From Bacteroidia bacterium (GTDB lineage: Bacteria; Bacteroidota; Bacteroidia; J057), in NCBI GenBank assembly GCA_041391665.1, contig JAWKNO010000003.1, forward strand, positions 407,987 to 471,986: a stretch of DNA of 64,000 nt, given 5' to 3'. Below the pieces are notes generated by a model. That model saw only the letters and a program-made list of their open reading frames with translations, ran no database searches and was not told where the DNA came from. This document shows, in pieces, positions 37,960 to 57,738 of the stretch. The translations under genes and the position numbers were made by a program. Within the stretch, counting starts at the first letter, position 1. Every line of letters starts with the position of its first letter.

Positions 37960-38121
37960 GGGGGGAGGCTTTAAAAACCATCGGCCACCATACTGACTTT
38001 TGGTCATAATTCAATTGAGGAAACAACCCCACGAACAACAATAAATAGCTTCGATCCGTTTACAGAAATGATTATCTTTACCTGGTCTAATTGTTGACTG
38101 TTGTAATATAAATAGGTGGAA

Positions 38122-39006
38122 ATGAGTGCGCTAAAAGAGAGGTATGTTAATCCGCTAACTGATTTTGGGTTCAAGAAATTATTTGGCACTGAACCCAATA
38201 AGAGTTTATTAATTGACTTTCTCAACCAAATATTGCCGGCACGACATCAGATTAAGGACCTTAGCTATGCAAATTCCGAACAATTGGGATCTCATGATCT
38301 GGATCGAAAAGCTATATTTGATTTGTATTGTTTAGGGGAATCGGGAGAGCGATTTATCGTAGAGATTCAGAAAGCGAAGCAGAATTTTTTTAAAGACCGT
38401 AGTATTTACTATTCATCCTTTCCGATTCAGGAACAGGCGAAGAAAGGCGATTGGGATTACCGCTTAGATCCGGTTTATACAGTAGGCATTCTTGATTTCA
38501 TTTTTGAGGATCATAAAAAGGAGGAAGAATTACTGCATATAGTAGAATTAAAGAACCAACGCTGTGAGGTTTTTTATGACAAATTGAAGTTTATCTATAT
38601 TGAATTACCCAAATTCACCAAGCAGGAGGATGAGTTATCCTCTCATTTTGATAAATGGCTATATGTATTCCGCCACTTAGCGAAGTTAAATAACAGGCCA
38701 AAAGCTTTGCAAGAAAAAGTCTTTGGAAAATTATTTGAAGCCGCTGAGATCGCCCGTTTTACGCCTGAAGAAAAAGAGGCGTATGAGGAAAGTTTGAAAT
38801 ATTATCGGGACTTAAAAAATGTAGTGGATACTTCTAAAGAAGAGGGCAAGATTGAGGGCAAGATCGAAGGCAAGATCGAAGGCAAGATTGAGGGCAAGAT
38901 CGAAGGCAAGATCGAAGTTGCTATAGAATTAAAAAGAAATAATGTAGCTATTGATATTATCATTAAGTCGACAGGGTTATCTAAAGAAGAAATTGAGAAT
39001 TTGTAG
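38122..39006 (+). CDS. Rpn-family PD-(D/E)XK nuclease / putative transposase
   Basis: YVNPLTDFGFKKLFG N-terminus and the D...EIQ core (FDLYC...RFIVEIQKAKQ). Has a C-terminal EGKI repeat. Confidence 0.8.
   Translation: MSALKERYVNPLTDFGFKKLFGTEPNKSLLIDFLNQILPARHQIKDLSYANSEQLGSHDLDRKAIFDLYCLGESGERFIVEIQKAKQNFFKDRSIYYSSFPIQEQAKKGDWDYRLDPVYTVGILDFIFEDHKKEEELLHIVELKNQRCEVFYDKLKFIYIELPKFTKQEDELSSHFDKWLYVFRHLAKLNNRPKALQEKVFGKLFEAAEIARFTPEEKEAYEESLKYYRDLKNVVDTSKEEGKIEGKIEGKIEGKIEGKIEGKIEVAIELKRNNVAIDIIIKSTGLSKEEIENL
38842..38913 (+). repeat. 12-bp tandem repeat x6 encoding (EGKI)6
   Basis: gagggcaagatt/gaaggcaagatc units read directly from the sequence. Confidence 0.9.
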
Positions 39007-42479: not shown

Positions 42480-42572
42480 ATCTATTAAAAGGATAGTATT
42501 TATTTTTCTTCGCATTGAAAAAAGTATTAATGGGAAAACAGAGATTGGTTATTCTACCTATGCAAGCGTCAA

Positions 42573-42580
42573 TAAATTTG
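42573..42580 (+). promoter_or_regulatory. candidate -7 box TAAATTTG upstream of the four-gene operon
   Basis: Matches TAnnTTTG about 113 nt upstream of the ATG at 42693. Motif match only. Confidence 0.3.
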
Positions 42581-42692
42581 CAATAAAATCAAAATAGAAA
42601 AGTCCCAAGCATGAGCTACGCGCGCCATAAATTCGCCCACTGCTCGTCATGGTGTGCAGCTCGGGTGTTGGGCCACATAAAAAAAGAAAACA

Positions 42693-42881
42693 ATGGAAAA
42701 AGTCAAAAAACCGAAAAAGAAAGTGCCAAAAATTGTCAACGGCAATTACAATTGTATGTCTTGCACATGTAGTGACTTTAATGAAAGTTTGACAAGTAAT
42801 GTTTGTACATGTGGGCATTCATTTTATGACCATAGATTTTATCAAAATCAAAGTGAAGAAAAAAATAAAATTCAATTATAA
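42693..42881 (+). CDS. 62-aa lysine-rich protein with SWIM-like zinc finger (operon gene 1)
   Basis: C21-x2-C24-x-C26-x11-C38-x-C40-x-H42-x4-H47. The C-x-C-x13-C-x-H subset fits the SWIM signature, and CTCSDF...CTCGH resembles CxCPxF...CKH. Confidence 0.55.
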   Translation: MEKVKKPKKKVPKIVNGNYNCMSCTCSDFNESLTSNVCTCGHSFYDHRFYQNQSEEKNKIQL

Positions 42882-42886
42882 TTATT

Positions 42887-42991
42887 ATGAATGATGACTT
42901 AGATAGCATGAATGGTGATTTAGCTAACATGAATAGTGATTTAGTTAGCATGAATGGTGATTTTGTTGGCATGAATGACAACTTAGTTGAC
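42887..42991 (+). repeat. 21-bp tandem repeat x5
   Basis: Reads atgaatgatgacttagatagc / atgaatggtgatttagctaac / atgaatagtgatttagttagc / atgaatggtgattttgttggc / atgaatgacaacttagttgac. Confidence 0.9.
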
Positions 42992-43969
42992 ATGTTGATT
43001 ACTAGGCTTGTTTCAAATGAACAGGTTAGAAGAGGACAACTGATAAACCAGCAAGCCCAATGGGAATTTGAGCAATACATGGAGTATTGGAGGTTTCTTA
43101 CCCAAGATGAACTTAGACAAAGGGAATATGAAAGAAGAATCACAGAACACATCCTTAGAAATCAATTGCAAAAAGATTTACAAACCGAATTAGATATCAA
43201 AAGATTAAGATTTCAGAAATATGGGTCCTCATACTCATCTACAGAATGGCTCAAGGCACAAGGATACAGCAGAAGTAGCCGACATTTGTTTGTTGTCTTT
43301 AGTGTTCATTTTAATGATTCGACCATACCTAATCCAATGTATTTCTTGAAAGATAGGTTAAAAGAGCAGAACAAAGACTTTGAACAGAAAAAATCACTAT
43401 TAATTCTTGATACGGCTGAAGGGTTTGGTACGAGCTCTGAAGCTGCAATGTTTTATAATAGAGAATTTATTTTTAAACCCGCTATTATTGTTTACGGACT
43501 TCTCTCTGGAAACTACCTCAGATTTTATGCAACGTTTGGCGGTGTTCTTGAAAATCAGGTCAAAATAGAATACGTTAATGATGATGATATTCAAATAAGT
43601 ATAGAACCTGAAAATATTACCTTAGGAGAAATTCCGATAAGCATAATAGAGAAGATATCCTCAGCTTCAAACGAGTTGCAAAAGGGGAAAGAAAAAACCG
43701 ACAGTGTTGTTGACTACGTCATTAACTCTCAACTCCAGTTACTAATTGATTATGCATTAATTTGGATTACCAATAAAGAAAACAAAATTTGGGATAATGT
43801 AAGGAGCAAGAAAAAAAATCGAATAAAAGAAATATCAGATGAAGTGCCAGAACTTGGAGAAAAATTAAAAGAATTTGACGAATTAATAAATCGTCGAAGC
43901 ATTGAAATTGAAAAAATAAGTCGCTCTCGTACATACAAGGATGACAAAAACAGTAATCCTTTCTTATAA
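42887..43969 (+). CDS. hypothetical protein with N-terminal heptad repeats and coiled-coil segments (operon gene 2)
   Basis: Starts 5 nt after gene 1. Has an (MNxDLxx)5 N-terminus and charged helical stretches at both ends. Confidence 0.65.
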   Translation: MNDDLDSMNGDLANMNSDLVSMNGDFVGMNDNLVDMLITRLVSNEQVRRGQLINQQAQWEFEQYMEYWRFLTQDELRQREYERRITEHILRNQLQKDLQTELDIKRLRFQKYGSSYSSTEWLKAQGYSRSSRHLFVVFSVHFNDSTIPNPMYFLKDRLKEQNKDFEQKKSLLILDTAEGFGTSSEAAMFYNREFIFKPAIIVYGLLSGNYLRFYATFGGVLENQVKIEYVNDDDIQISIEPENITLGEIPISIIEKISSASNELQKGKEKTDSVVDYVINSQLQLLIDYALIWITNKENKIWDNVRSKKKNRIKEISDEVPELGEKLKEFDELINRRSIEIEKISRSRTYKDDKNSNPFL

Positions 43970-43989
43970 ACTCAAGAAAAACAAAATCA

Positions 43990-45030
43990 ATGAATTCATT
44001 TAAAATAACAATACTTGGTGCTCAAAACTCTGGAAAAACTTGTTACATGTATGCGATGTATAAAATAATGAGTGAAGGCAGAGACGGATTCACTTTTACA
44101 GCATGTCAGCCATATTCATTAGAACTGGATAAAGATGCTCATAATGAGCTACTTAAAGGATGGCAAATAATTTCTCAAAAAAAAGAATGGGTGCCAGGTA
44201 CAATTGGCTCGGGCAAGAACTATAATTTTTCATTTAATTATGCTGGGAAAAGTTTAATTAGTTTTGAGTACTTAGATTACAGAGGATCTGCCTTAAAAGA
44301 CGGAAAAGATTCAAAAGATTACCAAACTTTGTTATCAAATCTTTCTAATTCGCAAGTAATAATGTGGTGTGTTCCAGGTCAGTATTGGAAAGACCAGGAT
44401 GAGGACGAATACTCTAATATTGATTTGGAAATTTCAAATATCAATGCACTTCTTGCAGATTTAAAAAGTAAGAGAGACAAAGATAAGAAGCCTGTTCCTC
44501 CCGTAATTCTTCTTATTACAAAATATGACCAATGCAAGAATGTACCAAGTGATAATCTGCAAAGATTAATAAAGTCAAAACTGAACATCTTATTTACCAA
44601 AGAAGGGGATTGGCTTGTTACTATTATGAAATCTACTCTCGGTTTTGATTTGTCGGAATTTGATAATGATTTAGAAAAAGCCACAATTAAGCCAAAATGG
44701 ATTATGGAACCAATAGCCTTTGCCATTTACTTTGTATTTGAACAACTGAAAAAAGCGTTTTCTGAAGATATTAGTTATCATAGTAGGGAGGCAGATCGTT
44801 ACAAAGGCAGTTTTCTTGGCATAAAAGATTGGTGGTTTTCAGAAGAAATAGAACACCATGAATTAAGAGAGAAAAAAGCATCAGATGAAATTGATTTCAT
44901 CAAAAAATACGCACCCCTTGTAAAAGAAACTTTTTTCCCCAAAGATTCTGCGTATTTCTACTTCAAAGGCAAAAAATTAAAATTAGAACAATTGGAGTCT
45001 TTAATTTCTGGCAATAAAACAGATATGTGA
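43990..45030 (+). CDS. orphan P-loop GTPase-like NTPase (operon gene 3)
   Basis: G1 G10AQNSGKT17, G3 D96YRG99 and G4 T177KYD180 preceded by a hydrophobic strand VILLI. Candidate switch-I Thr in WVPGT71. Confidence 0.7.
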   Translation: MNSFKITILGAQNSGKTCYMYAMYKIMSEGRDGFTFTACQPYSLELDKDAHNELLKGWQIISQKKEWVPGTIGSGKNYNFSFNYAGKSLISFEYLDYRGSALKDGKDSKDYQTLLSNLSNSQVIMWCVPGQYWKDQDEDEYSNIDLEISNINALLADLKSKRDKDKKPVPPVILLITKYDQCKNVPSDNLQRLIKSKLNILFTKEGDWLVTIMKSTLGFDLSEFDNDLEKATIKPKWIMEPIAFAIYFVFEQLKKAFSEDISYHSREADRYKGSFLGIKDWWFSEEIEHHELREKKASDEIDFIKKYAPLVKETFFPKDSAYFYFKGKKLKLEQLESLISGNKTDM

Positions 45031-45058
45031 AAAATTTGTTAATCTAAAAAATATAACA

Positions 45059-46105
45059 ATGTCGCAGCCCAAAAAAATTAACGCAGCTCCATTCGTGTTG
45101 AGTAGAACAAACTCAATCGATTATAGAATTTTATCAATGCCAAATTCATTGAAGTCAACCGCCAATGATATCAGGCAATTAATTGAAATAAATTTTTTAA
45201 GCTCTCCAAACAGCCTTTACGATGAAGAGACTCAATTTCGTTGGACTATTTTTCAATTCAATAAAGTTTTATTTATTGGGTTAGTTGGACTTGCTCATAA
45301 TATCTCAGATGTTAACAACCGGTGTAACGAGGGGACAAGACCCTTCTATGTTTATTTGGGGTATGTTATCGAGAATGTGTCAAATGAAAGCGTAATCGAA
45401 TATTTTCCATTTTCTGTTGACACATTCAGGAATTTATACTTGTATATTAATTCGAAGTGGGACGAAGTAGTTGAATCAGAACCTTATTCGTCAGAAACCA
45501 TAATTTTAGAATCTAAACCAATTAGTACCATTGAACAAATAAAAATTAGGATTGAAGAAGACTGGACTCTCATATATCCCGACAGTAAAATGGAGGCTAT
45601 TTGGCAAAATATATTGAGTAATCCCCCTGAAAATAATTTTATTGTATGTTTGGGAATGGCTACGGAAGAGGATGCGCTTCAATCTACTATGGCTACGAAA
45701 GAGGATGTGCTTCAATCTACTATAAATATTGCTACTATTCCCGCGAAAAACTATCATTACGAAGAAATACCATATGCCTTTAAAAAAATAAAAAAAGAAG
45801 AACTGCCAGAAGAAGCTAAACCTATTATTGAGGAGAAATTAGATAAATTTCCAGAAAAAAGAGTGTTTGAAAAAGCAAAAGAAAAGACTGTAGCTTTTTT
45901 AGGTTTCGGAACTGTAATAACTCTCGCTGGTGCTATATTGAAATCAGTTTACATAGTTGTCATCGGAGGCTCAATTATAGTAATAGGAGGTTCTTTAACT
46001 GCAATAGATAACTTCCTAAAAAAAGATAAAGAAGAAGAAAAACACCGCCCCAAAAAGCGCCCAAATCATAAAGATAAGCCTCCTCCTCCTGATTTAGGTG
46101 AATAG
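45059..46105 (+). CDS. membrane-anchored protein with C-terminal Gly-rich TM hairpin and basic Pro-rich tail (operon gene 4)
   Basis: VAFLGFGTVITLAGAIL-KS-VYIVVIGGSIIVIGGSLTAI followed by KKDKEEEKHRPKKRPNHKDKPPPP. The ~270-aa N-terminal soluble region has no recognised fold. Confidence 0.65.
   Translation: MSQPKKINAAPFVLSRTNSIDYRILSMPNSLKSTANDIRQLIEINFLSSPNSLYDEETQFRWTIFQFNKVLFIGLVGLAHNISDVNNRCNEGTRPFYVYLGYVIENVSNESVIEYFPFSVDTFRNLYLYINSKWDEVVESEPYSSETIILESKPISTIEQIKIRIEEDWTLIYPDSKMEAIWQNILSNPPENNFIVCLGMATEEDALQSTMATKEDVLQSTINIATIPAKNYHYEEIPYAFKKIKKEELPEEAKPIIEEKLDKFPEKRVFEKAKEKTVAFLGFGTVITLAGAILKSVYIVVIGGSIIVIGGSLTAIDNFLKKDKEEEKHRPKKRPNHKDKPPPPDLGE
45656..45721 (+). repeat. 33-bp tandem duplication (MATEEDALQST / MATKEDVLQST)
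   Basis: Two adjacent 33-nt copies with three mismatches, read directly. Confidence 0.9.
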
Positions 46106-46115
46106 CAAATAGGAC

Positions 46116-46314
46116 GCAATTCAAATTGTCGCGGTGAACGGAAAGGTTCCTCCTCCTTAGGTCGTCGAGTCTGAAAGGACTCCTTCGGAGATGACGGTTT
46201 GTCATGAGAAAAACCGCTTCTCCGGCCGGAGAAGAGCGTTTCTGGTAGGATGCCACCTCACCCTGACGACCAACGGAAGGAAGGGTCTATTGCTTTTGCG
46301 ACAATTTGGTTTGC
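46116..46314. other. GC-rich structured element bounded by 17-nt imperfect inverted repeats (candidate ncRNA or MITE)
   Basis: gcaattcaaattgtcgc (46116-46132) against gcgacaatttggtttgc (46298-46314), with an 11-bp perfect core. Internal hairpins are gtcgtc/gatgac (46161-46195) and the perfect palindrome cttctccggccggagaag (46217-46234). Confidence 0.4.
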
Positions 46315-46389
46315 TCCCAATTATACCTTAACATGAAATTCTCCAAAGAGTTCAGGTCATTTCGGAGAACAGGAAAATGCCTTTCATGT

Positions 46390-46569: not shown

Positions 46570-46653
46570 TACTCATACCTGTAACCGTTATAAGCAACAA
46601 ATAAAACCATGCCTCTTGTTGAGGAGAGTATAAATGAAATCAAATTTATCCTA

Positions 46654-48648
46654 ATGAAACAGTTTACACCAAGCTTCATACGAGCACTCTTACTATTAAC
46701 GCTAACTGCCCTGCTATGCCGACACTCTGCTCAGGCACAAAACTGGAGCGAAATCATCAAAGTCACCGCTTCCGACCGGGAAAGTGAGGATCGGTTCGGC
46801 TACTCGGTAGCCATCTCCGGGGACTACGCCATAGTAGGGGCTTATGAAGAAGATGAAGACGCCTTGGGCGGGAACACCCTTGACGGTGCCGGTTCGGCCT
46901 ACCTCTTTCACAACCAGGCCGGAACCTGGACCCAGGTGCAAAAGATTGTCGCCTCCGATCGGGATGCTGGGGATCGGTTCGGCTACTCGGTAGCTATCTC
47001 CGGTGACTATGCTGTGGTAGGGGCTTATAATGAAGATGAAGACGCCTTGGGCGGGAATTCCCAAACCAGTGCCGGTTCGGCCTATATCTTTCACAACCAG
47101 GCCGGTACCTGGACCCAGATGCAAAAGATTGTCGCCCCCGACCGAAAGGCTTTTGATTGGTTCGGCTACTCGGTAGCCATCTCGGGGGACTATGCCGTGG
47201 TGGGGGCTCAAAGAGAAGGTGATGACATCTTGAGTGGTAGTGCTATACTCAGTTCCGGTTCGGCCTACATCTTCTATAACCAGGCCGGAACCTGGACCCA
47301 GGTGCAAAAAATTGTCGCATCCGATCGGGCACCTTCAGATTTCTTCGGCTACTCGGTAGCCATCTCCGGGGACTATGTTGTGGTAGGGGCTGATAGCGAA
47401 GATGAAGATGCTTCTGGCGGGAATACCCTTGACCGTGCCGGTTCGGCATACCTCTTTTACAACCAGGCCGGGACCTGGACCCAGGTGCAAAAGATTGTCG
47501 CCTCCGATCGGGAAACTACAGATTTTTTCGGATCCTCGGTAGCCATCTCCGGGGACTATGTCTTGGTAGGGGCTTATAACGAAGATCAAGATGCCTTGGG
47601 CGGGAACACCCTTGACGGTGCCGGTTCGGCCTACCTCTTTCACAACCAGGCCGGAACCTGGACCCAGGTGCAAAAGATTGTCGCCTCCGATCGGGATGCT
47701 TTTGATTCTTTCGGATCCTCGGTAGCCATCTCCGGAGACTATGCCCTGGTAGGGGCTCCCCGGAAAGATGAATACACCTCGGGCGGGAATTCTCTCCCCA
47801 GTGCTGGATCAGCCTACATCTTTCACAACCAGGTCGGGATATGGACCCAGGTGCAAAAGATTAATGCCTCCGACCTAAACACTGAGGATCGGTTCGGCAT
47901 CTCAGTAGCTATCTCCGGGGACTATGCCTTGGTGGGAGCTCATCGGGAAGATGAAGACGCCTCGGGCGGGAATTCCTTATCCAATTCCGGTTCGGCTTAT
48001 TTTTGGGGGAAGTCCTGTACCAATACTGCCGGAACAGACCTCCAAACTGCTTGCGACAGCTACACCTGGATTGATGGTAATACCTATACGGCATCCAATA
48101 ACACAGCTACACATACACTAATCAATGCCGCAGGATGCGACAGTCTGGTAACGTTAGATTTGACAATAAACACAATAGATGTAAATGTAACCGACAGTAG
48201 CCCTACTCTGACAGCCAATGCTTTGGGAGCTACTTATCAGTGGCTGGATTGCGACAACGGCTATGCTGCTATTGCAGGAGCAACTAACCAATCCTTCCTC
48301 GCTACGGCTGATGGGAATTACGCTGTGGCGGTAACAGCCAATAATTGTACAGATACTTCGGCTTGTTACTCAGTAGTAATCACGGGCATTGTCGAAAATG
48401 GAAATACTGCTTTTGCCTCAGTTTATCCGAATCCAACCTCAGGCATACTAACCATTGACCTTGGCAACACGCCTCTCACGGGAGGCATCACCATAGAGTT
48501 GACCGATATGCTTGGCAGGGTGGTTATCCGAGATCAGGTATCTGTGCCTCATATTGAGGTGGACTTACGTAAGGAGGAAAATGGGGTGTATGTCATTCGC
48601 ATTATAACTGAAGCAGGCGCACATGCCTTACGCGTGATTAAGCAGTAA
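46654..48648 (+). CDS. seven-bladed FG-GAP (integrin-alpha-like) repeat protein with T9SS C-terminal sorting domain
   Basis: Signal MKQFTPSFIRALLLLTLTALLC. Seven copies of FG(Y/S)SVAISGDYAxVGA...GSAY(L/I)F.NQAGTWTQVQKI. CTD is ASVYPNPTSGILTIDL...GVYVIRI. Confidence 0.8.
   Translation: MKQFTPSFIRALLLLTLTALLCRHSAQAQNWSEIIKVTASDRESEDRFGYSVAISGDYAIVGAYEEDEDALGGNTLDGAGSAYLFHNQAGTWTQVQKIVASDRDAGDRFGYSVAISGDYAVVGAYNEDEDALGGNSQTSAGSAYIFHNQAGTWTQMQKIVAPDRKAFDWFGYSVAISGDYAVVGAQREGDDILSGSAILSSGSAYIFYNQAGTWTQVQKIVASDRAPSDFFGYSVAISGDYVVVGADSEDEDASGGNTLDRAGSAYLFYNQAGTWTQVQKIVASDRETTDFFGSSVAISGDYVLVGAYNEDQDALGGNTLDGAGSAYLFHNQAGTWTQVQKIVASDRDAFDSFGSSVAISGDYALVGAPRKDEYTSGGNSLPSAGSAYIFHNQVGIWTQVQKINASDLNTEDRFGISVAISGDYALVGAHREDEDASGGNSLSNSGSAYFWGKSCTNTAGTDLQTACDSYTWIDGNTYTASNNTATHTLINAAGCDSLVTLDLTINTIDVNVTDSSPTLTANALGATYQWLDCDNGYAAIAGATNQSFLATADGNYAVAVTANNCTDTSACYSVVITGIVENGNTAFASVYPNPTSGILTIDLGNTPLTGGITIELTDMLGRVVIRDQVSVPHIEVDLRKEENGVYVIRIITEAGAHALRVIKQ
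46744..48005 (+). repeat. intragenic tandem repeats, period ~183 nt, x7
   Basis: One 108-nt stretch is identical at 46861-46968 and 47593-47700 by hand comparison. Confidence 0.85.
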
Positions 48649-48767: not shown

Positions 48768-50591
48768 TTAACCCCTCACCACATTCAATACCACCATCTG
48801 CGTCAGCAGCCCTCCCGCTGATTGCCTGCCCGATATGGGAAATCGCATGGATTTTCCTTCCCTGATAACGTCCAGTACAACCTGGGCCTTGTCTGATTTG
48901 CCAAGGATAGATGAAATTTCGGAAGGCTCATTTACCCTGATGCCATCCAGAGCAACGATGACATCCCCGACTTTTATGCCTGATTTTTCGAGGTTTCCAC
49001 CTTCGTCTGTACCCAATACCATAATCCCCAGACTGCCCTGATAGGTTGCCGGGTTTTCAATCCTGTAGATGGAAACACGGGCATATAACTGCTGAAGCGG
49101 GCTCAATTCTGTGTTTTTCAACGCCTGTCGAAAATAATAAGCCGATGCCTGTCCATCACATTCGATAAACGAAAAGGCCGCTCTCTCAAACAACTCCGCC
49201 GGATCTGTAATGCTGTTGTCTAAAGTCTGTTTTTTCAGGTTTTCATACTCTCCCTCCGTAAGGCTGTCAGGTAGTCCGGTAAGTTTGCGCAGGTAAACCA
49301 GGTAGGGATCGGTGATCTGTCGTTTGATTTCGCGTTTTTGGGCATCTTCCATTATTCCGGTTTCTCTACTTAGCAATTCTGTTTTCTGCTGGTAAAGGGT
49401 AGAGAGAACCTGATTCCATTCCTGAAACGTAAGTTTACCCTCTGGAAGTGGCAGGTCGAGCTGAAGTGCGCGGAACTGATCTTCAGGGAAACCGGGATCC
49501 GCTTCGGGCAACTGGATGTACTTCAGGGTAGCTTCAACCAATGCCCGTTTACCTTCCACGATTTTCATGTCCCGGAAATATTTTGCCCTCGCGGCTCTTT
49601 CTGTGTCGCTGATATGATCCAATCGCTGGAGATACAGCAATTGGTCCTGATACTCCGAGATTTGCATGTCAATGTCCTCGAAAAACCGATAGACAAAATC
49701 AACGCCTTCCTTGACTTTAGGCTGAAAAACCAGATCTTTATTCAGCACTTCGTACTGTCGGCGGTTGATAGGCCACTTTCTTCGGTACATTTGGATATTT
49801 TCCTCGTACTGGCGAAAGCTATGAAGTGCACGCTGCTGAAAGCCTTCTTCAATTTCATTGATTTTTTTGGTGCCCCAATATGGCGCTGGATTATCTTCTT
49901 CCAACATCCAAAGCAGGGAACTATAGTTAGAGAAGAGATTCTTCATTTCTTCATGGATAGAGTTCCATGCACCCTGAAAATGCTCATCGGCTCCTGGATT
50001 AATAATAAGATCTCTACCAGAATTATATTGGTTTCCAATATAAGTGCTCCCCCCCACAAACAACCCGATTACCAGCCCTATCAGACCTGTTCTCTTTTGA
50101 TTTGAAGCAAATCGCCGAACGCTGGACCATAAAGTTCCTGACCTCCTGGAAACCGGATTTCCACGGACAATGGACACGATTTTTTCTACAATTTCTTCTG
50201 TTGGTAGTTCCGAGGAAATGGCAAACCGGTCTGCCATCATGGGTGAAGATTTTCTTACTTCACTTTCTGTTACGCCATGCCAGATAGGAATAATTCTGGA
50301 CTGACCTACCGTTTCAACTCCGTAAAATGCCGCATATTCATCTCTCGTCCATTTATGCTCTAAATAGGCTAGACTGATAATCGCCACACAATATGCTGAC
50401 CGAGAAATAGCTGCATCAATCTCCCCCATTAGCTTATTCCCAGGTTTTAGTTTATATCCTGAATACCAAACCTTTAGGTCAGTTTGTGATAATGCCTCTA
50501 CAAATGCTTCTGTAAAATGCTGCTTATCTTCTACTGCGTGAGAGATAAATACATCGAACTCAAATTTCTCTTCCCGAAACGGATTTTTCAT
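48768..50591 (-). CDS. TIR domain - TM helix - long helical region - PDZ domain protein
   Basis: TIR is FDVFISHAVEDK...KVWY...CVAIIS...KWTRDEY (a W-x3-E catalytic-type Glu is present). TM helix is GLIGLVIGLFVGGSTYI after RR/KR. C-terminal PDZ-like segment is GIMVLG...GIKVGDVIVALDGIRV. The start is set at the internal MKNPF. Confidence 0.75.
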   Translation of the reverse strand: MKNPFREEKFEFDVFISHAVEDKQHFTEAFVEALSQTDLKVWYSGYKLKPGNKLMGEIDAAISRSAYCVAIISLAYLEHKWTRDEYAAFYGVETVGQSRIIPIWHGVTESEVRKSSPMMADRFAISSELPTEEIVEKIVSIVRGNPVSRRSGTLWSSVRRFASNQKRTGLIGLVIGLFVGGSTYIGNQYNSGRDLIINPGADEHFQGAWNSIHEEMKNLFSNYSSLLWMLEEDNPAPYWGTKKINEIEEGFQQRALHSFRQYEENIQMYRRKWPINRRQYEVLNKDLVFQPKVKEGVDFVYRFFEDIDMQISEYQDQLLYLQRLDHISDTERAARAKYFRDMKIVEGKRALVEATLKYIQLPEADPGFPEDQFRALQLDLPLPEGKLTFQEWNQVLSTLYQQKTELLSRETGIMEDAQKREIKRQITDPYLVYLRKLTGLPDSLTEGEYENLKKQTLDNSITDPAELFERAAFSFIECDGQASAYYFRQALKNTELSPLQQLYARVSIYRIENPATYQGSLGIMVLGTDEGGNLEKSGIKVGDVIVALDGIRVNEPSEISSILGKSDKAQVVLDVIREGKSMRFPISGRQSAGGLLTQMVVLNVVRG

Positions 50592-50800
50592 ATTAATAAA
50601 GACTTTCTCAAAGCAGAAGATGCTTCTAAAAATAGTTTTTTTTGAGAAAACAGCCAAAGCCCAACCAGCTACCTACAACAAAAAATGCGATCCCGCTAAC
50701 AGAATTGATTATCTTTACCTGATACGGTTGAACAACAGGCTCTGATAACCGTTAACTATTTCCTGTCTCATTCCTATTACTTATCGCTTAAAAATACAAA

Positions 50801-53800
50801 ATGATCATCCACCCATTTTTTAAAGTAGGTTTACTTTCTCTGCTGCTGTGTATTACAGCAACAACCTTTGGGCAAATCGTCAATGTCGGCAGTGGGAGTT
50901 ATACCCAAACTTTCCCCGGAACCGATGCCGCCGGAAGAAATACCTTTCCTTCCGGTACGCCTTTTACCATAGGGGTTGCTGCTACGAAACCTACACCAAC
51001 CAATGACTGGTGGTCTCATAAAGTAAAAAATAGCCATTCCGACAATTTATTCAACTATCCCTTTACGATGAAAACGGTCAATTCGGGTCTCGTCGTATCG
51101 TATATTCCCTGGGGTGTGATCGATAATATTGAGCCTGTGATTGTGGGGGTTACCGGGTTAAACGCTTCGGCAGCAAATGTTTCCGACTTCACAGATTGGA
51201 CCGTTTCCATAGACTGGAGTAGTGGAGCCAACAATTTCCAGGCGAAATCGGGCATCGGAATGCCTTTTATCTATTTTTCAAAAGGTACCAATGACGTAGC
51301 ACGGGTTACCGTCAACCAGGGAACAGTAACGATTTCAAATGAAATGCTGATCATCGTCGATGCGCGAAATGGGGCAGACTTCGCTGTTTACGCGCCAATG
51401 GGAAGTGTTTGGTCGCAAAATGGCAATACGTACACTTCTACTTTAAATGGTCAAAATTACTGGTCATTAGGGTTTATCCCGCTAAACGCCTCAAACGTTA
51501 CTTCCACCGCAAATGCCTATAAAAAATACGCTTACGTTTTCCCGGCAAACACAAAGACTGACTGGTCTTATGATGAAACATCTTCCGTAGTCACCACCAA
51601 TTTTACGGTTGAAACAGAGGTAAAAGAAGGGACAGATAGTACGATGCTTTTGGGTTTGCTCCCACACCAATGGGCAAACTTAGCGCCTGGTGCTCCAGGA
51701 CTAACCCCATACACTTACAATACAGTCAGAGGCCAGATGAAAATGCTGGACGGCAATAGCTTTACCGTCGAAAATACTTTTTACGGTATTTTACCCACCC
51801 TCCCTTATCTCGATTATTACAGCCCGGGTTTTAGTCCGGCGCAATTAAATGAAAAAGTAAAACTGCTGCAAAATGACGGCCTGAACAGCTGGACAGACTC
51901 CTACAACGAAGGGCAGGAAATGAATCGACTGATTCAGACTGCCAGAGTAGCCCAGCTTTCCGGCGACACCGTTGCTTTACAAAAGCTACTGACCACCGTC
52001 AAAGCGCGGCTGGAAGACTGGCTGAAAGTCAACGGTGGCGAAGTCGCTTTTTTATTCTATTACAATCAAACCTGGTCTGCCATGATCGGCTATCCCGCAG
52101 GCCACGGACAGGACGGCAATATCAACGACCACCACTTTCACTGGGGGTATTTTATTCATGCTGCTTCCTTTATAGAGCAATTTGAGCCCGGTTGGGCAGC
52201 CCAGTGGGGGGATATGATCAATCTATTGGTGAGGGATGCTGCCAGCCCAAACCGACAGGATAATCTGTTTCCTTTCCTGCGAAACTTCAGCCCTTACGCA
52301 GGTCACTGCTGGGCAAATGGTTTTGCTTCTTTCCCGCAGGGCAACGATCAGGAATCAACCTCTGAAAGTATGCAATTTAATTCCTCGCTCATCCATTGGG
52401 GAGAAATTACCGGCAACGATTCCATCAGAGATTTGGGCATTTACCTATATACCACCGAGCAATCCGCCGTTGAAGAATATTGGTTTGATAAATACAACCG
52501 CAACTTTGCCCCCCCCCATCCCTACAGTCTGGTGTCCAGAGTCTGGGGCAACAGCTATGATAATGGTACGTTTTGGACCAACGACATTGCCGCATCTTAT
52601 GGCATCGAATTATACCCGATACATGGGGGGTCGCTGTATTTGGGCCATGACACAACCTATGTCAACCAGCTCTGGAACGAAATTGCGCAAAATACCGGCA
52701 TTTTGACCAACGCACCCAACGTCAACCTATGGCATGATATCATGTGGGAATACCTGGCGTTTGTCAACCCTGAGAAAGCCATTGAGTTGTACGACTCATA
52801 TCCCGAGCGTTCGCTGAAATTTGGTGTCTCTGATGCGCAAACCTATCACTGGCTGCATAGTATGAATGTTTTAGGGAATGTTGATGTTTCCCTTACAGCC
52901 AACCATCCGCTGGCAGTAGCTTTTAATAAAAACGGCGCAAAAACTTATGTTGGCCAAAACTATGGCATGGATACGATCAGCGTAACTTTCTCTGATGGAT
53001 ATATATTGAAAGTACCGCCGCGAACCCTGGCCACAAGCAGAGATATCGCCATAAAAGGTGTTTTGACTTCCAGTTTCCCGGAAGCTTATCCGGGCGGAAG
53101 TGTAGATTTGACAACCGTAGTCAGCGGCGGAACAGCAACAAAGGTTGAATTTTATGATGGGAATGTTTTAGTAGGGCAAACAGCATCGGCGCCTTTTGTG
53201 GTTACCGCAGCAAATTTGAGCGTAGGAAGGCACAATTTTTATGCGAAGGTATATAACGATACGCTGTTTAATCTCACCAATATCGTAACGGTGATCGTCG
53301 GTGAGCAGCGCCCTTATTCCGGATCACCCATTACCATCCCCGGTACATTTCAGGCAGCGCACTATGATATCTTTGAGGGCGGTGTGGGGAATGGAATCGC
53401 TTATCAGGATGCTTCAATTATCAATGAAGGTAATTTCAGGTTAAATGAATATGTAGATGCAGAAACCAAGGCTTCCGAAGGTGACATTGTCGGCTGGATC
53501 GTTGCCGGCGAATGGCTGGAATATACAGTTGATGTCCAACAGGCAGGAAATTACAATCTGACATTCCGGTATGCCTGTGGCAATAGTGCCGGCGGCGGGC
53601 CCCTACGTATTGAATCAGATGGACTGGTCGTAAAATCGGGGATTACGGTTACCTCTTCAGGCGGATGGAACAACTGGTCAAATAAATCCGTTACAGGAAT
53701 CCCGCTCAAAAGCGGTAAACAAGTTCTGAGAATATATTTTGAAAATGGCGAGTTGAATGTGGGAAAATTCACCTTTACCTATGCTTCGCCATTGACCTAT

Positions 53801-54910
53801 AGCCAGCCGGTTGCAGACGCCGGGGCAAATCAAATCATTGTTCTGCCACAAAGTACGGCAACCCTCGACGGTAGCGCAAGTACCGACCCCAATGGCGGAA
53901 CACTCAACTACAACTGGACGCAGGTATATGGCCCCTCAACCCTGTCATTTTCAAATTCCCAGACGGCTCAGTCCACGATTTCATCATTAGTTGAAGGTGT
54001 TTACCTGATGAAACTGAAAGTGGATAACGGTAGTTATACCGATGAGGATGAAGTATATATTATTTCAAGCCTTACGCCGAATGTTGCGCCTACGGTGGCA
54101 CTGCTTTCTCCATTGGACAACTCGGTATACATCGAAGGGGAAATGATTGATATTACTGCATTGGCTGCTGATTTGAATGATAGCATTCAAATGGTCAAAT
54201 TCTATTCTGACGGAACAGAGCTGGCAACCATTACCCAGGCACCTTATACGCTTTCGTGGACTTCAATCCCCGGGATTTACAGTTTGACGGCTGTTGCATT
54301 TGATCATAATAATGATTCGACGATTTCCAATGTCGTACAGGTAGAATTTACCCCCGCACCCTCTTGCAACGGCGTGTCATGGAATGGCGATTTTGCTTAT
54401 GAATTTTCAGATGCAGACAATAATCCCACCATTACATTTATTTCCAACCAGCCAGGAGTAGGCACACCCACCTGCATTTTGTACTATGGCACTGACCCCG
54501 GCAATATGCCCGGTTATGGCGTAACGAGGAATGTTCCGTTTCAGATCAATGCAACAAAAGGCACGAAAATTTATTTCTATTATACCTACTCTTTCCCTGG
54601 CGCAGTAGAAAAAAATAACGCCGACCACAAAGATACCTATGTCATAGGAAGCTGTAAAACGGTTTCGATCCGCGACTTTGAAACGATGAATTTGAAATAT
54701 TACCCTAACCCGGTTACCGATATTTTGAATATTGAATTGCCTAATGGCGTAAATGAAATCTCCGTTCATGACCTTACAGGCCGGTTGATTTATACCACCA
54801 CCGTTGCCGAAAATCATTTTAAATACGATATGCGGGAATGTGCCTCTTCTGTTTATTTTATTACGGTGATTAATGATCACAAAAAAGCAGTGTTGAAAGT
54901 GGTGAAGTAA
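50801..54910 (+). CDS. multidomain GH81 endo-beta-1,3-glucanase with CBM-like, PKD/Ig-like modules and T9SS CTD
   Basis: GH81 signatures NDHHFHWGYF and the ESTSES catalytic region. CBM6-like GEWLEYTVDV...YNLTFRYA and a PKD-like ADAGANQ... segment. CTD is LKYYPNPVTDILNIEL. Confidence 0.85.
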   Translation: MIIHPFFKVGLLSLLLCITATTFGQIVNVGSGSYTQTFPGTDAAGRNTFPSGTPFTIGVAATKPTPTNDWWSHKVKNSHSDNLFNYPFTMKTVNSGLVVSYIPWGVIDNIEPVIVGVTGLNASAANVSDFTDWTVSIDWSSGANNFQAKSGIGMPFIYFSKGTNDVARVTVNQGTVTISNEMLIIVDARNGADFAVYAPMGSVWSQNGNTYTSTLNGQNYWSLGFIPLNASNVTSTANAYKKYAYVFPANTKTDWSYDETSSVVTTNFTVETEVKEGTDSTMLLGLLPHQWANLAPGAPGLTPYTYNTVRGQMKMLDGNSFTVENTFYGILPTLPYLDYYSPGFSPAQLNEKVKLLQNDGLNSWTDSYNEGQEMNRLIQTARVAQLSGDTVALQKLLTTVKARLEDWLKVNGGEVAFLFYYNQTWSAMIGYPAGHGQDGNINDHHFHWGYFIHAASFIEQFEPGWAAQWGDMINLLVRDAASPNRQDNLFPFLRNFSPYAGHCWANGFASFPQGNDQESTSESMQFNSSLIHWGEITGNDSIRDLGIYLYTTEQSAVEEYWFDKYNRNFAPPHPYSLVSRVWGNSYDNGTFWTNDIAASYGIELYPIHGGSLYLGHDTTYVNQLWNEIAQNTGILTNAPNVNLWHDIMWEYLAFVNPEKAIELYDSYPERSLKFGVSDAQTYHWLHSMNVLGNVDVSLTANHPLAVAFNKNGAKTYVGQNYGMDTISVTFSDGYILKVPPRTLATSRDIAIKGVLTSSFPEAYPGGSVDLTTVVSGGTATKVEFYDGNVLVGQTASAPFVVTAANLSVGRHNFYAKVYNDTLFNLTNIVTVIVGEQRPYSGSPITIPGTFQAAHYDIFEGGVGNGIAYQDASIINEGNFRLNEYVDAETKASEGDIVGWIVAGEWLEYTVDVQQAGNYNLTFRYACGNSAGGGPLRIESDGLVVKSGITVTSSGGWNNWSNKSVTGIPLKSGKQVLRIYFENGELNVGKFTFTYASPLTYSQPVADAGANQIIVLPQSTATLDGSASTDPNGGTLNYNWTQVYGPSTLSFSNSQTAQSTISSLVEGVYLMKLKVDNGSYTDEDEVYIISSLTPNVAPTVALLSPLDNSVYIEGEMIDITALAADLNDSIQMVKFYSDGTELATITQAPYTLSWTSIPGIYSLTAVAFDHNNDSTISNVVQVEFTPAPSCNGVSWNGDFAYEFSDADNNPTITFISNQPGVGTPTCILYYGTDPGNMPGYGVTRNVPFQINATKGTKIYFYYTYSFPGAVEKNNADHKDTYVIGSCKTVSIRDFETMNLKYYPNPVTDILNIELPNGVNEISVHDLTGRLIYTTTVAENHFKYDMRECASSVYFITVINDHKKAVLKVVK

Positions 54911-54966
54911 TTGGACCCCGATTTTACCAGCTATAAAATTTTCCATTTTCACGCTATCTTTGCGTC

Positions 54967-56838
54967 ATGAAAAAGAAGGTCGAAATTTTAGCTCCTGCTA
55001 AGAACCTTTACCAGGGTATGGCAGCGATCAATGCCGGTGCTGATGCCGTTTATATCGGTGCGCCTCAATTCGGTGCCCGCACCAATGCCGCCAATTCGGT
55101 AGAGGACATTGCCGAATTGGTCCGGTACGCACACCTATTCAAGGCTCAGGTCTTTGTGGTGCTGAATACCATTCTTTATCAGAATGAACTCGAAATCTGT
55201 GAAAAACTCATTCACGAGTTATACGACATTGGTGTGGATGCACTTATCGTGCAGGACATGGGCATTCTGGAAATGAACCTGCCGCCTATCGTCATTCATG
55301 CGAGTACGCAGGCCAACAATCGCGATCCTAAGCACATCAAATTCCTCCACGACGCTGGAATGAAACGAGTAGTGCTGGCGCGGGAGCTAAACCTCGATCA
55401 GATCAGGGAAATCCGCGAAGCGACCGATGTGGAGTTGGAGTTTTTTGTTTCAGGCGCGCTCTGTGTTTCGTTTAGCGGCAATTGTTATATGAGTGTGGCA
55501 AATGGCGAACGCAGTGCCAACCGGGGTTCCTGCGCACAAAATTGCCGGCTGCCCTACAACCTGATCGATGGCACGGGAAAAACCCTGTTGACAGAAACGC
55601 ATTTGCTCTCGATCAAGGATTTGAATCTGAGCGACCGGCTGCCGGAGTTGATTGAAGCGGGGGTAACTTCTTTCAAAATAGAAGGGAGATTGAAAGACAT
55701 CGTCTATGTCAAAAACAATGTCTCTTACCTGAGAAAGCGGCTGGATACTTTTCTCGCAGGTAGCGATACCTATGAAAAAGCCTCTTCCGGGCGCACTTTT
55801 TACAATTTCGATGCAGAAATGGACAAAAGTTTTAACCGGGGCTATACCGACTATTTTGTCAATAAAAGGGTGAAAAAAATTGGCTCCTGGGAAACCCCCA
55901 AATCACAGGGCCAGTTTATCGGCAAACTGCTGGAAGTAAAAGCCAATGGCTATGTCATTGAAAATCAGGAATTGTTGAATAATGGCGACGGGCTCTACTT
56001 TGTAAATGAAGAAGGAAAGGCTGATGGCGATCGCGTCAATGTCATTGCGAATGGCCTGGTCATTCCCAACACATTCCGGCCACTTCCTGTGGGAACTTTG
56101 ATTTACCGAAACGCTGATGCAGCTTTTAATAAGCTCGTAGAAAGAGAAGACAGCGCCATTCGCAAAATCGGCGTAGCCCTGAACTTCTCAGAAAGCGCCA
56201 CTGGTTTTATCCTGACAGCCACAGATGAAGACGGTCATGTGAGCACAGCGGCCCTCGAAGGGGAAAAAGATCTGACCAAAAACGGAGAATCCATTATCCC
56301 CAATATCAAAAAGAACCTTTCCAAAGCAGGGAATACGCCTTTTATTGTCGATGATATTCAAATCCATTTTTCCAACAATTGGTTTCTGCCCATTTCCAAA
56401 ATCAACGATATCAGGCGGACGGTATTGGAGCAATTGGTGGACATCAGGATCAAAGAATACCATCGGGAAGAATTTCAAATCACGAAAACAGACCACCCCT
56501 ACCCCATTTCCGAGCTGGACTTCACCCACAACGTATCAAACAAACTGGCGCGGCAATTTTACGAAAGACATGGCGTCACCCAGATTGAGAAAGCCTTTGA
56601 ATTGCAATGGGACCCAGGCAAGTCGCGGGTGATGACAACCAAGTACTGCGTCAAATATGAGTTGGGCAAATGCCCGCGTTTTCAACGGGCCACCATGGGC
56701 GAGAAGGTCGTGGAGCCATTGGTGCTCAAGCATGGAGAAGTGGAGTACAAGCTGAAGTTTAACTGCAAGCCCTGTGAGATGGAGATTTGGGAGAAAGATG
56801 CAGAGTTTGAGATTGAGGAGGAAGGGATTTGGGATTGA
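54967..56838 (+). CDS. U32 family peptidase (long form)
   Basis: ILAPAKN start and U32 signature E-x-F-x2-G-A-L-C-x-S-x-S-G-x-C (EFFVSGALCVSFSGNC). Confidence 0.85.
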   Translation: MKKKVEILAPAKNLYQGMAAINAGADAVYIGAPQFGARTNAANSVEDIAELVRYAHLFKAQVFVVLNTILYQNELEICEKLIHELYDIGVDALIVQDMGILEMNLPPIVIHASTQANNRDPKHIKFLHDAGMKRVVLARELNLDQIREIREATDVELEFFVSGALCVSFSGNCYMSVANGERSANRGSCAQNCRLPYNLIDGTGKTLLTETHLLSIKDLNLSDRLPELIEAGVTSFKIEGRLKDIVYVKNNVSYLRKRLDTFLAGSDTYEKASSGRTFYNFDAEMDKSFNRGYTDYFVNKRVKKIGSWETPKSQGQFIGKLLEVKANGYVIENQELLNNGDGLYFVNEEGKADGDRVNVIANGLVIPNTFRPLPVGTLIYRNADAAFNKLVEREDSAIRKIGVALNFSESATGFILTATDEDGHVSTAALEGEKDLTKNGESIIPNIKKNLSKAGNTPFIVDDIQIHFSNNWFLPISKINDIRRTVLEQLVDIRIKEYHREEFQITKTDHPYPISELDFTHNVSNKLARQFYERHGVTQIEKAFELQWDPGKSRVMTTKYCVKYELGKCPRFQRATMGEKVVEPLVLKHGEVEYKLKFNCKPCEMEIWEKDAEFEIEEEGIWD

Positions 56839-56854
56839 GACAAGCAGTGAAAAG

Positions 56855-57655
56855 ATGGATAGACCTTTTATTCAAAGGATTCGTATTTATCCCATAAAAT
56901 CTCTTGATCCCGTGGAGGTGCAGCAAGCAGAGGTTGGGATTCATTCACTAAAATATGATCGAAGCTTTGCCCTTTTAGGTGAAGATGGCCGCTTTATCAA
57001 TGGTAAACGAACAGGCCTGGTCAATCAGCTCAAGGCCTCCTACGATTTGGAAAATCAATTTGTTTTTCTATCCAGAAGGGGGGAAGAGACTGTCCATAAA
57101 TTCGAATTAAAGCCAGAAAATTCGGAACTCGTCGGGTATTTGGAAGATTTTTTTGGAATAAAACTAGTTTTGTTGCAAAACTCCAATGGGAAACTAATGG
57201 ATATACCCACACAAAGTAGTGTAACTGTAATCAGCACCGCTACTTTACAATCTCTACAAAATGATCTGAAAGATCATACGCTTGAAGACCTTAGGCTGAG
57301 ATTCAGGGCCAATATTGAAATTGAAGGGGTTGAGGCTTTTTGGGAGGAAAAACTATTTCAAGTGCCGGGGGTTGGGGTGCGATTCACAGTGGGTGAAGTT
57401 GAAATGATCGGGGTGAGTCCAAGAGCCCGTTGCAATGTTCCGCCTCGTAACCCGATGAATGGAGAAACTGATAAGTCTTTTATAAAAAAGATGATGCGAA
57501 GCAGGCTAAGTTCCTTGCCAAAGGACAGCACGTTGCTGCATTATGGCAATACCTATCAATTGACCGTCAATACTTACCTGAGTCCGGATCAAAAAGGAAA
57601 AATCATGAAGGTTGGCGATCCCGTTGAAATCAAAGAAACTGTGACTTTCAAATAG
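56855..57655 (+). CDS. MOSC domain protein
   Basis: MOSC N-terminal beta-barrel IRIYPIKSLD, RFRANIEIEG and the conserved Cys in SPRARCNVP. The start is set at MDRPF. Confidence 0.75.
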   Translation: MDRPFIQRIRIYPIKSLDPVEVQQAEVGIHSLKYDRSFALLGEDGRFINGKRTGLVNQLKASYDLENQFVFLSRRGEETVHKFELKPENSELVGYLEDFFGIKLVLLQNSNGKLMDIPTQSSVTVISTATLQSLQNDLKDHTLEDLRLRFRANIEIEGVEAFWEEKLFQVPGVGVRFTVGEVEMIGVSPRARCNVPPRNPMNGETDKSFIKKMMRSRLSSLPKDSTLLHYGNTYQLTVNTYLSPDQKGKIMKVGDPVEIKETVTFK

Positions 57656-57738
57656 ATTGTTTTGACCAATGTGATACTCATCACTGAAATCGACTTTGAC
57701 CGTATCATACCTTTGGGTAGATTTTGGAAAAAGCATTA

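Follow-up and report, generated by a model that had tools for sequence, protein, structure and literature searches.

A bacterial TIR domain joined through a predicted membrane helix to a conserved helical and PDZ module

How could one protein pass an event in the cell envelope to a TIR enzyme in the cytoplasm? The question is raised by a gene in a 64,000-nucleotide stretch of DNA from an uncultured Bacteroidia bacterium (contig JAWKNO010000003.1; the whole stretch is called the window below), whose product carries, in this order, a TIR domain, a predicted transmembrane (TM) helix, an all-helical region and a PDZ domain. A preliminary description, made from the letters of the DNA, had called this arrangement solitary and similar to a Toll-like receptor (TLR). 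The reading that we favour, and to which we give an even chance, is that of a type II single-pass receptor-enzyme of the inner membrane, in which a periplasmic PDZ module would control the assembly of a TIR NADase, that is, of an enzyme cleaving NAD+.

Domains of the window protein

The gene and its parts are as follows.

48768..50591, minus strand: TIR-TM-helical-PDZ gene, 607 codons and a stop counted from the ATG, monocistronic
50157..50564, minus strand: TIR domain of the PdTIR/TcpB/AbTir type with the VWY bulge motif (residues ~10-145)
50337..50339, minus strand: codon of E85, the putative catalytic Glu of W81-x3-E85 (codons of W81 to E85 at 50351-50337)
50091..50156, minus strand: basic juxtamembrane linker, RR...RR...KR (residues 146-167)
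50034..50090, minus strand: predicted TM helix with a glycine zipper (residues 168-186, TGLIGLVIGLFVGGSTYIG)
49032..50006, minus strand: all-alpha domain, five long helices and then short TPR-like hairpins (residues ~196-520)
48771..49031, minus strand: PDZ domain and conserved hydrophobic C-terminal tail (residues ~521-607), the equivalent of the carboxylate-binding loop being S520-L-G-I523

The 607-residue product is a 100% match to a protein from a metagenome-assembled genome (MAG) at NCBI, 'TIR domain-containing protein [Bacteroidia bacterium]', encoded on a 2.18-Mb contig. Since homologues exist, with 49% identity across the full length and 76% for the C-terminal module, the gene is real and conserved and not a chance open reading frame (ORF). 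The same minus-strand frame is opened further upstream by a TTG, giving an ORF that reaches 50657; this start was rejected, as the NCBI protein and the homologues start at, or align from, the ATG. The motifs cited in the preliminary description are all found at the residues given there: FDVFISHA at 12-19, KVWY at 40-43, CVAIIS at 68-73, W81-T-R-D-E85 and GIKVGDVIVALDGIRV at 538-553.

That the N-terminal part is a TIR domain, as had been proposed, was confirmed by Pfam (TIR_2, E 5e-17, 63 bits against a cut-off of 28; TIR, E 1.5e-13, 51.3 bits against a cut-off of 21.3), by a sequence search of the PDB and by Foldseek of the AF2 model. With residues 1-150 as the query, phmmer matched PdTIR (3h16, E 1.5e-27), TcpB/BtpA (4lqc, 5e-27) and AbTir (7uwg, 5e-25), together with TcpB/BtpA 4lzp and 4c7m, AbTir 8g83 and BtTir 7uxr, all in the range of E 1.5e-27 to 1.7e-24; identity to the PdTIR/TcpB/AbTir group amounts to 34-39% over ~135 residues. 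In the TIR part, where confidence in the model is moderate, Foldseek returned 3h16 (E 4e-9; TM-score normalised to the target, TMt, 0.77), 7uxr, 4c7m and 7uxu, with E 4e-9 to 1e-6 and TMt 0.70-0.78. A 'VWYD' bulge after the second strand is the mark of 'group 35' bacterial TIRs (Toshchakov & Neuwald 2020, PMC7075850), and K40-V-W-Y43 of the window protein fits it. Likewise, the Glu of the WxxxE motif stands at the catalytic position of NADases, as the preliminary description had suggested: W81-x3-E85 lines up residue for residue with 'WPARE' of TcpB/BtpA and 'WPQKE' of PdTIR, so that E85 falls on their Glu. In BtpA the corresponding residue is presumably E217, the published catalytic residue, its number having been worked out backwards from the last residue of chain 4lzp. 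The Glu is also kept in the closest TIR-TM relatives and in all TIR-bearing members of the module family described below, namely the orthologue in the related genome L007, P0002, P0011, P0025, P0034 and P0030 (P numbers denote metagenomic protein representatives, L numbers genome loci or contigs).

Judged by its sequence, the window TIR is a member of the PdTIR/TcpB/AbTir subgroup, yet the protein does not have the architecture of that subgroup. PdTIR, TcpB, AbTir and BtTir resemble it in TIR sequence, fold, VWY bulge and the WxxxE motif with its catalytic Glu, but they are soluble, with an N-terminal coiled coil and a C-terminal TIR, whereas the window protein has an N-terminal TIR, a predicted TM helix and a module of ~420 residues predicted to be extracytoplasmic. 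The coiled-coil dimeriser of the PdTIR-type proteins is missing, and the glycine-zipper TM helix may substitute for it. Based on the similarity to TcpB/BtpA (35-37% identity, E ~1e-26), a virulence factor aimed at the host, like TcpB/BtpA/TcpC, that disturbs eukaryotic TLR signalling could be proposed. We regard this as very improbable: a predicted TM helix anchors the TIR, and the protein, unlike the products of both neighbouring genes, carries neither a secretion signal nor a C-terminal domain of the type IX secretion system (T9SS); the DNA comes from the MAG of an uncultured member of the Bacteroidia, and the relatives all come from environmental MAGs; and the same subgroup includes PdTIR and AbTir, which act as NADases in non-invasive settings.

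The window protein holds only one hydrophobic segment, residues 168-186, with a borderline Kyte-Doolittle (KD) 19-residue mean of 1.59. This segment falls inside 25 uncharged residues (168-192) bordered by an RR/KR cluster, with four K/R in the 15 residues before it and one after it, and carries the glycine zipper G169-x2-G172-x3-G176-x3-G180-G181, of which the five Gly are invariant in P0002 and the pattern recurs in P0010, P0011 and the L007 orthologue; a zipper of the form GxxGxxxGxxxG is typical of packed TM helices. The basis of the TM call is hydropathy, together with the charge bias and a comparison with relatives, the TM segments of other TIR-module proteins being stronger (KD 2.15, 2.12, 1.89 and 2.37; 1.9-2.15 for P0002, P0011 and P0025). 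By the positive-inside bias the topology is predicted to be type II (N-in/C-out), with the TIR in the cytoplasm and the residues after the segment outside, in agreement with the single TM segment and the orientation given in the preliminary description. If the protein did not span the membrane, it would lie wholly in the cytoplasm, with the glycine-rich segment as a flexible or peripheral linker, and its module would sense a peptide there, for example the C-terminus of a phage protein. Such a linker would fit the borderline hydropathy, with KD below 1.4 in P0010, a close relative that carries EAD11 in place of the TIR, the low AF2 confidence in the segment (predicted local distance difference test, pLDDT, <50) and the TM-less members of the family, among them the direct TIR-module fusion P0030. 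Nevertheless, the uncharged stretch between basic residues, the conservation of the zipper, the clearly hydrophobic matching segments of P0002, P0011 and P0025 and the strong TM found at the same position in all of the closest TIR relatives make a protein that stays out of the membrane improbable.

Those closest TIR relatives (P0003-P0007 and P0009, of 370-391 residues) have the same TIR type and one strong TM at residues ~160-190 with 4-6 K/R ahead of it, followed by a C-terminal domain of ~190 residues that is unrelated to the window module and has no Pfam match. Because all of them consist of a TIR, one TM and an unrelated C-terminal domain, they point to a wider class of type II single-pass TIR proteins with variable outside domains. 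P0007 (locus L003) is encoded after genes for a TPR-histidine kinase and a LytTR response regulator.

The remainder of the protein is predicted with high confidence, residues 196-607 reaching a mean pLDDT of 94.8 in the AF2 model built from a 54-sequence alignment. For the helical domain there is no Pfam or NCBIfam model and no PDB sequence match, and Foldseek against the PDB and BFVD gave no fold match to it, only the PDZ being matched; its conserved motifs are PxPFWDxRRxNETExxYQxRA, REIxRxIxDPYLxxLRK and SFxE(S/C)DG. The C-terminal PDZ named in the preliminary description holds: its single-sequence score is weak (Pfam PDZ_6 and PDZ_2, 27.2 bits, cut-off 27), but the family profile is unambiguous, matching in the PDB the PDZ domains of DegQ/DegP (E 2.6e-17) and of an RseP homologue (E 3.6e-11), and PDZ domains only. 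PDZ_2 is matched by 30 of the 43 family members, the family keeps the PDZ motif G-D-V-I, and in Foldseek the domain resembles PDZ2 of MucP/RseP (TMt 0.69, rmsd 2.5). The Φ-G-Φ loop (SLGI, 520-523) is retained, and the binding of C-terminal peptides is putative. Trypsin-like and M50 models in Pfam and NCBIfam were matched in their PDZ parts and revealed no protease domain, and neither Foldseek nor the family profile against the PDB revealed enzymatic or pore-forming features in the module.

The module family and its N-terminal partners

An exhaustive phmmer search with residues 143-607 against 1.84 billion representative proteins returned 62 representatives at E<1e-10, of which 37 also passed E<1e-30, most of the family spanning the whole ~400 residues; the further matches, up to 997 in total, cover the PDZ only. 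The 90% clusters of the family hold one or two members each, all metagenomic and mostly from Bacteroidota. A word-index search found, for the full window protein, the protein itself and one full-length relative only and, for residues 1-200, three short TIR proteins, while an alignment search of genomes with the module gave three loci; the module was found neither in viral contigs nor, by tblastn, in PLSDB plasmids or INPHARED phages. The preliminary description had suggested a survey of the frequency and neighbourhoods of this architecture, and besides the 62 representatives of the module it yielded no partner gene conserved across the family loci. Conservation across these proteins indicates that the helical and PDZ parts are one conserved, previously undescribed module. 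What precedes it differs, the N-terminal classes having been assigned by Pfam scans and hydropathy.

TIR and one TM: the window protein, the L007 orthologue, P0002, P0011, P0025 and P0034/P0162
TIR without TM: P0030, with the TIR fused directly to the module
EAD11 and one TM: P0010, P0028, P0032, P0038, P0053 and P0057
Ser/Thr kinase and one TM: P0017
Signal peptide and CarboxypepD_reg: P0037, P0048 and P0065
About 140 residues of unmatched sequence and three TM: P0046, P0047 and P0049
Bare hairpin of two TM: about 15 representatives
No TM or signal peptide: P0020, P0022, P0026, P0029 and P0055

The N-terminal partner is thus swapped, EAD11 taking the exact position of the TIR in six representatives. 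In a crude neighbour-joining tree of the module the TIR fusions fall in at least four places and the EAD11 fusions are likewise scattered; moreover, the window-type TIR shares only 22% identity with that of P0034 (E 3e-6) and is barely recognised in that of P0030 (E 0.015). The three unrelated TIR types and the scattered positions in the tree indicate that TIR and module were fused repeatedly and independently.

As to the location of the module, it can only lie outside the cytoplasm in the kinase-TM and the signal peptide-CarboxypepD_reg versions, going by their targeting segments. The two-TM hairpins have 3-4 K/R in the loop between the helices and 0-1 in the N-tail and in the stretch after the second helix, and are therefore predicted to be N-out/C-out with the module outside, so that an extracytoplasmic module is predicted for most of the family. 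The members that lack both a TM and a signal peptide show that the module is evidently able to function in the cytoplasm as well. The helical region and the PDZ domain given in the preliminary description both stand, then, but as one module that occurs behind other N-termini and is not obligatorily periplasmic.

P0017 (L006 5174-8531), in which a Ser/Thr kinase and a TM precede the module, is encoded directly downstream of an extracytoplasmic function (ECF) sigma factor gene, an arrangement in which the module must lie outside and which supports the receptor-enzyme that we favour. A second pair of ECF sigma factor and kinase genes lies just upstream of P0017 in L006, the tandem sigma/kinase modules having different outside domains. 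Since the swapped partners (TIR, kinase and EAD11) are all cytoplasmic signalling or effector domains, and given the kinase/ECF pattern, we infer that the module is a shared input module whose output partner is exchanged. The window protein would be one output variant of it, because the same module stands behind the P0017 kinase and the EAD11 adaptors. It is shared in this way with pairs of receptor Ser/Thr kinase and ECF sigma factor and with EAD-coupled conflict systems (Kaur et al. 2020, PMC7159879), from which the window protein differs in having neither kinase nor EAD but a TIR as its output.

The main rival explanation reverses the direction of the signal. The TM-helical-PDZ module would be a device that acts on the envelope or is targeted to it, and the TIR and EAD11 would be cytoplasmic homotypic adaptors or triggers for conflict systems encoded elsewhere; its task might be, for example, to recruit a protease in the periplasm or to sequester envelope-protein C-termini. 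The six EAD11 proteins invite this explanation, since EADs tether effector or signalling domains homotypically to core NTPase systems whose partner is often encoded elsewhere (PMC7159879). P0028 (L012 1-9671), with EAD11, a TM and the module, is the last gene of an operon for FHA, two Ser/Thr kinases, PP2C and FHA-Trypsin_2 proteins, which is the usual position of an effector. In addition, the module is strongly conserved and not hypervariable, and many members consist only of a two-TM anchor and the module, without a cytoplasmic output domain. On the other hand, no second EAD11 gene is found next to P0010 or in the operon of P0028, the module has neither enzymatic nor pore-forming traits, the catalytic Glu and the NADase-type sequence are kept in all TIR versions, as expected of an enzyme rather than an adaptor, and a kinase in the TIR position beside an ECF sigma factor gene is the classic receptor-kinase arrangement, with the sensor outside. 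The last two points in particular lead us to consider a module that acts as output unlikely, although worth keeping in mind. The P0028 operon also encodes two TSP_3-repeat proteins and DUF8428/8429.

The locus and its counterpart in a related genome

Around the gene, the window contains the following features, to which the recombination breakpoint discussed below is added.

46609-48648, convergent with the TIR gene: FG-GAP/T9SS gene, 679 residues, comprising seven FG-GAP_2 repeats in tandem (E 4.5e-122) and the C-terminal sorting domain of the T9SS
50801-54910, divergent from the TIR gene: GH81/CBM6/PKD T9SS gene with a 1369-residue product
54967-56838: U32 peptidase gene
42483-46319: three-gene cassette of low GC content (0.33-0.34; genes 42887-43969, 43990-45030 and 45059-46105), 2.7 kb from the TIR gene
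49300..49380, minus strand: approximate recombination breakpoint relative to the L007 orthologue (codons ~405-430)

Across 40.5-56.8 kb no PADLOC, Pfam or NCBIfam match to a ThsA-like partner was found, and the same three resources gave no SAVED, STING or CNB nucleotide-sensor domain or adjoining cyclase in the window protein or its neighbours, and no receptor for a TIR-made messenger near the gene. That no ThsA, CBASS or other partner adjoins the gene was therefore rightly noted in the preliminary description, the immediate neighbours being the FG-GAP and GH81 T9SS genes. The word solitary holds for these neighbours, but the variable cassette lies 2.7 kb away. A scan for sigma-70 promoters and terminators performed no better than on shuffled sequence, the sigma-70 model being ill-suited to Bacteroidota.

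L007 is a Bacteroidia MAG (JAWKNL010000001) in which the orthologue occupies the same place relative to the FG-GAP gene. The DNA identity between window and L007 is 76-98% in the flanks and 91-100% in the last third of the gene and downstream of it, but 43-76% per 100-bp block in the first two thirds, with a sharp change near codons 405-430. Accordingly, the proteins share 51% identity in the TIR, 48% in the linker and TM, 66% in the first part of the helical domain (helical A) and 94% in both its second part (helical B) and the PDZ, and the window TIR is closer to that of the distant P0002 (62%) than to that of L007. These differences are best explained by the 5' part of the gene having been swapped for a divergent allele by recombination. 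Allele replacement of this kind is a frequent pattern in conflict genes. The L007 orthologue has single-base frame-breaking indels in the PDZ part (L007 7060-7240), in surroundings nearly identical to the window, which could be errors of long-read assembly or signs of decay to a pseudogene. The FG-GAP homologous region is split into several ORFs in L007, suggesting indel errors in the assembly or repeat-driven variation. Upstream, about 7 kb of the window (~50400-57660, with the GH81 and U32 genes) have no counterpart at this place in L007, where DNA equivalent to that from 57666 onwards abuts the upstream region of the TIR gene; the difference is either an insertion or deletion, a rearrangement or a MAG misassembly.

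At the position of the cassette, L007 has unrelated DNA with three small unannotated ORFs. As L007 keeps the TIR gene without the cassette, the two are not obligatorily linked. In Pfam the middle gene of the cassette has a match to DO-GTPase2 (29 bits, cut-off 27), whereas the third gene terminates in a long hydrophobic glycine-rich segment; the first was compared with the middle gene as a candidate paralogue and rejected, there being no similarity, and no GAP1 or second GTPase was recognised within the cassette. The cassette is thus a variable island, and possibly one of the GTPase-centric conflict systems that Kaur et al. (2020) described. A second low-GC patch (38-40 kb, GC 0.39) contains a PD-(D/E)XK transposase-like gene at 38116-39006 (PDDEXK_2, E 1e-76), downstream of which unannotated ORFs extend as far as 42 kb.

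Among the relatives, the gene of P0002 follows rpmI and rplT, that of P0025 follows leuS and an oxidoreductase gene, and that of P0010 lies between ferredoxin and sulfatase genes, while P0162, a TIR version from Pseudomonadota, is encoded beside a phage integrase, transposases, DprA and a PIN/Phd toxin-antitoxin pair. The settings of the first three, and of the window gene, are chromosomal and among housekeeping or secreted-enzyme genes, and would suit a housekeeping receptor for envelope stress or cell-cell signalling, in which the PDZ monitors the quality of envelope proteins as in DegS and RseP, and the TIR makes a messenger derived from ADP-ribose or mildly tunes NAD+. The nearest PDZ domains being those of the envelope-stress proteins HtrA/DegS and RseP, the pairing of the kinase paralogue with an ECF sigma factor and the synteny with L007 also agree with such a role. 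A housekeeping gene would not be expected, however, in a family with so few and so scattered members (62 representatives among 1.84 billion proteins, in clusters of one or two), nor would the exchange of its TIR half for a ~50%-identical allele between related genomes; no receptor gene for a TIR-made messenger is nearby, and EAD11, the integrase and toxin-antitoxin contexts and the PADLOC TIR candidates point to conflict systems. We therefore give the housekeeping role a chance of about one in five, a minority explanation on a par with the output device.

A proposed mechanism and its place among TIR systems

For the receptor-enzyme that we favour, the following mechanism is hypothesized. The N-terminal TIR would be a cytoplasmic NAD+-cleaving enzyme of the PdTIR/TcpB/AbTir type, joined by the basic linker and the glycine-zipper helix to a periplasmic helical and HtrA/RseP-like PDZ module. 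This module would act as the input, the PDZ, probably aided by the helical domain, binding a peptide ligand present only under envelope disturbance, for instance the C-termini of proteins that have become exposed, by analogy with DegS. Binding would alter how the ectodomains and the glycine-zipper helices pack or oligomerise and so bring the cytoplasmic TIRs into the head-to-tail assemblies required for NADase activity. The cleavage of NAD+, which would either deplete it or yield a cyclic ADP-ribose isomer, would then lead to growth arrest, abortive infection or a second-messenger signal. TIR NADases need ordered self-association, as in SARM1, plant TIRs, AbTir and TIR-STING (cf. PMC9402430). 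A glycine zipper together with an oligomerising ectodomain would offer a simple coupling of an outside event to TIR assembly, and it is plausible that the window protein turns envelope perturbation into NAD+ depletion. The trigger could be the adsorption or injection of a phage, damage to the envelope in general or a signal made by the cell itself, and the TIR could either deplete NAD+ or produce a messenger.

Support comes from features typical of conflict genes, namely the swap of the TIR-TM allele, the context of P0162, the PDC-S66 match given below and the precedent of E. coli TIR systems with TM components, which provide TIR-dependent phage defence (PMC11350192). Several observations weigh against the mechanism. 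The borderline hydropathy and the low model confidence of the membrane segment have been mentioned, as have the members without TM or signal peptide, P0030, P0022, P0026, P0029, P0020 and P0055. The most conserved residues of the module gather in the C-terminal helical part and the PDZ, a clustering more usual for a conserved site of catalysis or partner binding than for a sensor that diversifies. Domains fused to EADs are usually effectors or signalling enzymes (PMC7159879), and within this framework the module would be the output instead of the input. Finally, three of the four TIR-module loci with context (window, P0002 and P0025) lie among housekeeping or secreted-enzyme genes, with no recognisable defence island.

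The receptor-enzyme shares some traits with several known systems. The PADLOC profiles PDC-S66 (E 2.5e-43), ThsB1 (1e-19) and RT-TIR (1.7e-11) match the window TIR, each in its TIR part only, the PDC-S66 match being confined to positions 144-280 of the 282-position profile. Like Thoeris ThsB, E. coli TIR-I to TIR-IX, SpbK, PDC-S66 and retron-TIR, the window gene encodes a TIR with the catalytic Glu, in a single-gene unit, but it has no ThsA, retron RT or other partner. Membership in Thoeris, in the CBASS/Pycsar effectors, in retron-TIR and in PDC-S66 was accordingly ruled out. With DegS, RseP and HtrA the protein shares the PDZ subfamily, the predicted periplasmic location and the Φ-G-Φ loop; their output is the proteolysis of an anti-sigma factor, whereas the window protein lacks a protease domain and its output would be a cytoplasmic TIR across the membrane. 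With the Toll-like and IL-1 receptors it would have in common a logic, that of a single-pass protein with a ligand-binding domain outside, a TIR inside and an activity that depends on clustering. Those receptors are of type I, with a C-terminal scaffold TIR and ectodomains of leucine-rich repeats (LRRs) or Ig domains, whereas the window protein, whose charge bias predicts N-in, would be of type II, with an N-terminal TIR of the enzymatic type and no LRR match in Pfam. Of the likeness to TLRs drawn in the preliminary description only the logic survives, as a functional analogy: the predicted topology is the mirror image, and common descent of the two architectures is without evidence.

To our knowledge, the characterised bacterial TIR systems all sense infection in the cytoplasm, through capsid or portal proteins, nucleotide messengers or the perturbation of a retron. 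In the searchable literature we found no TIR-TM-PDZ protein, no periplasmic precedent for a TIR and no TIR system with a PDZ or other extracytoplasmic sensor; the helical module was described neither there nor in the two Aravind-lab papers, and nothing relevant on EAD11 was found. Going by these comparisons, the window protein would belong to a known kind, the single-protein TIR sensor-effectors, and what appears new is the family of helical and PDZ modules that it carries.

A bolder proposal, which we put forward tentatively and hold to be less likely than the receptor-enzyme in its general form, is that of a bacterial transmembrane innate-immune receptor. The periplasmic helical and PDZ module would detect phage attack or a breach of the envelope and switch on the TIR NADase through the glycine zipper, the same sensor having been joined in independent events to three or more lineages of TIR, to a Ser/Thr kinase and to the Death-like EAD11 adaptors; it would be a functional analogue of TLRs and the first TIR system to sense infection before genome entry. 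The architecture is solidly supported and the prediction drawn from it clear, the functional statements being of the conditional kind. Apart from the TIR, the family offers a confidently folded helical and PDZ unit of ~400 residues, with no Pfam model or PDB fold match for the helical part, as a candidate for a new class of extracytoplasmic sensor. If true, TIR immunity would extend to the envelope, where a response would be possible at adsorption or injection, and the window protein would provide a one-protein model for the activation of TIRs by clustering across a membrane, the central unsolved step common to TLRs and to the TIR receptors of plants and animals.

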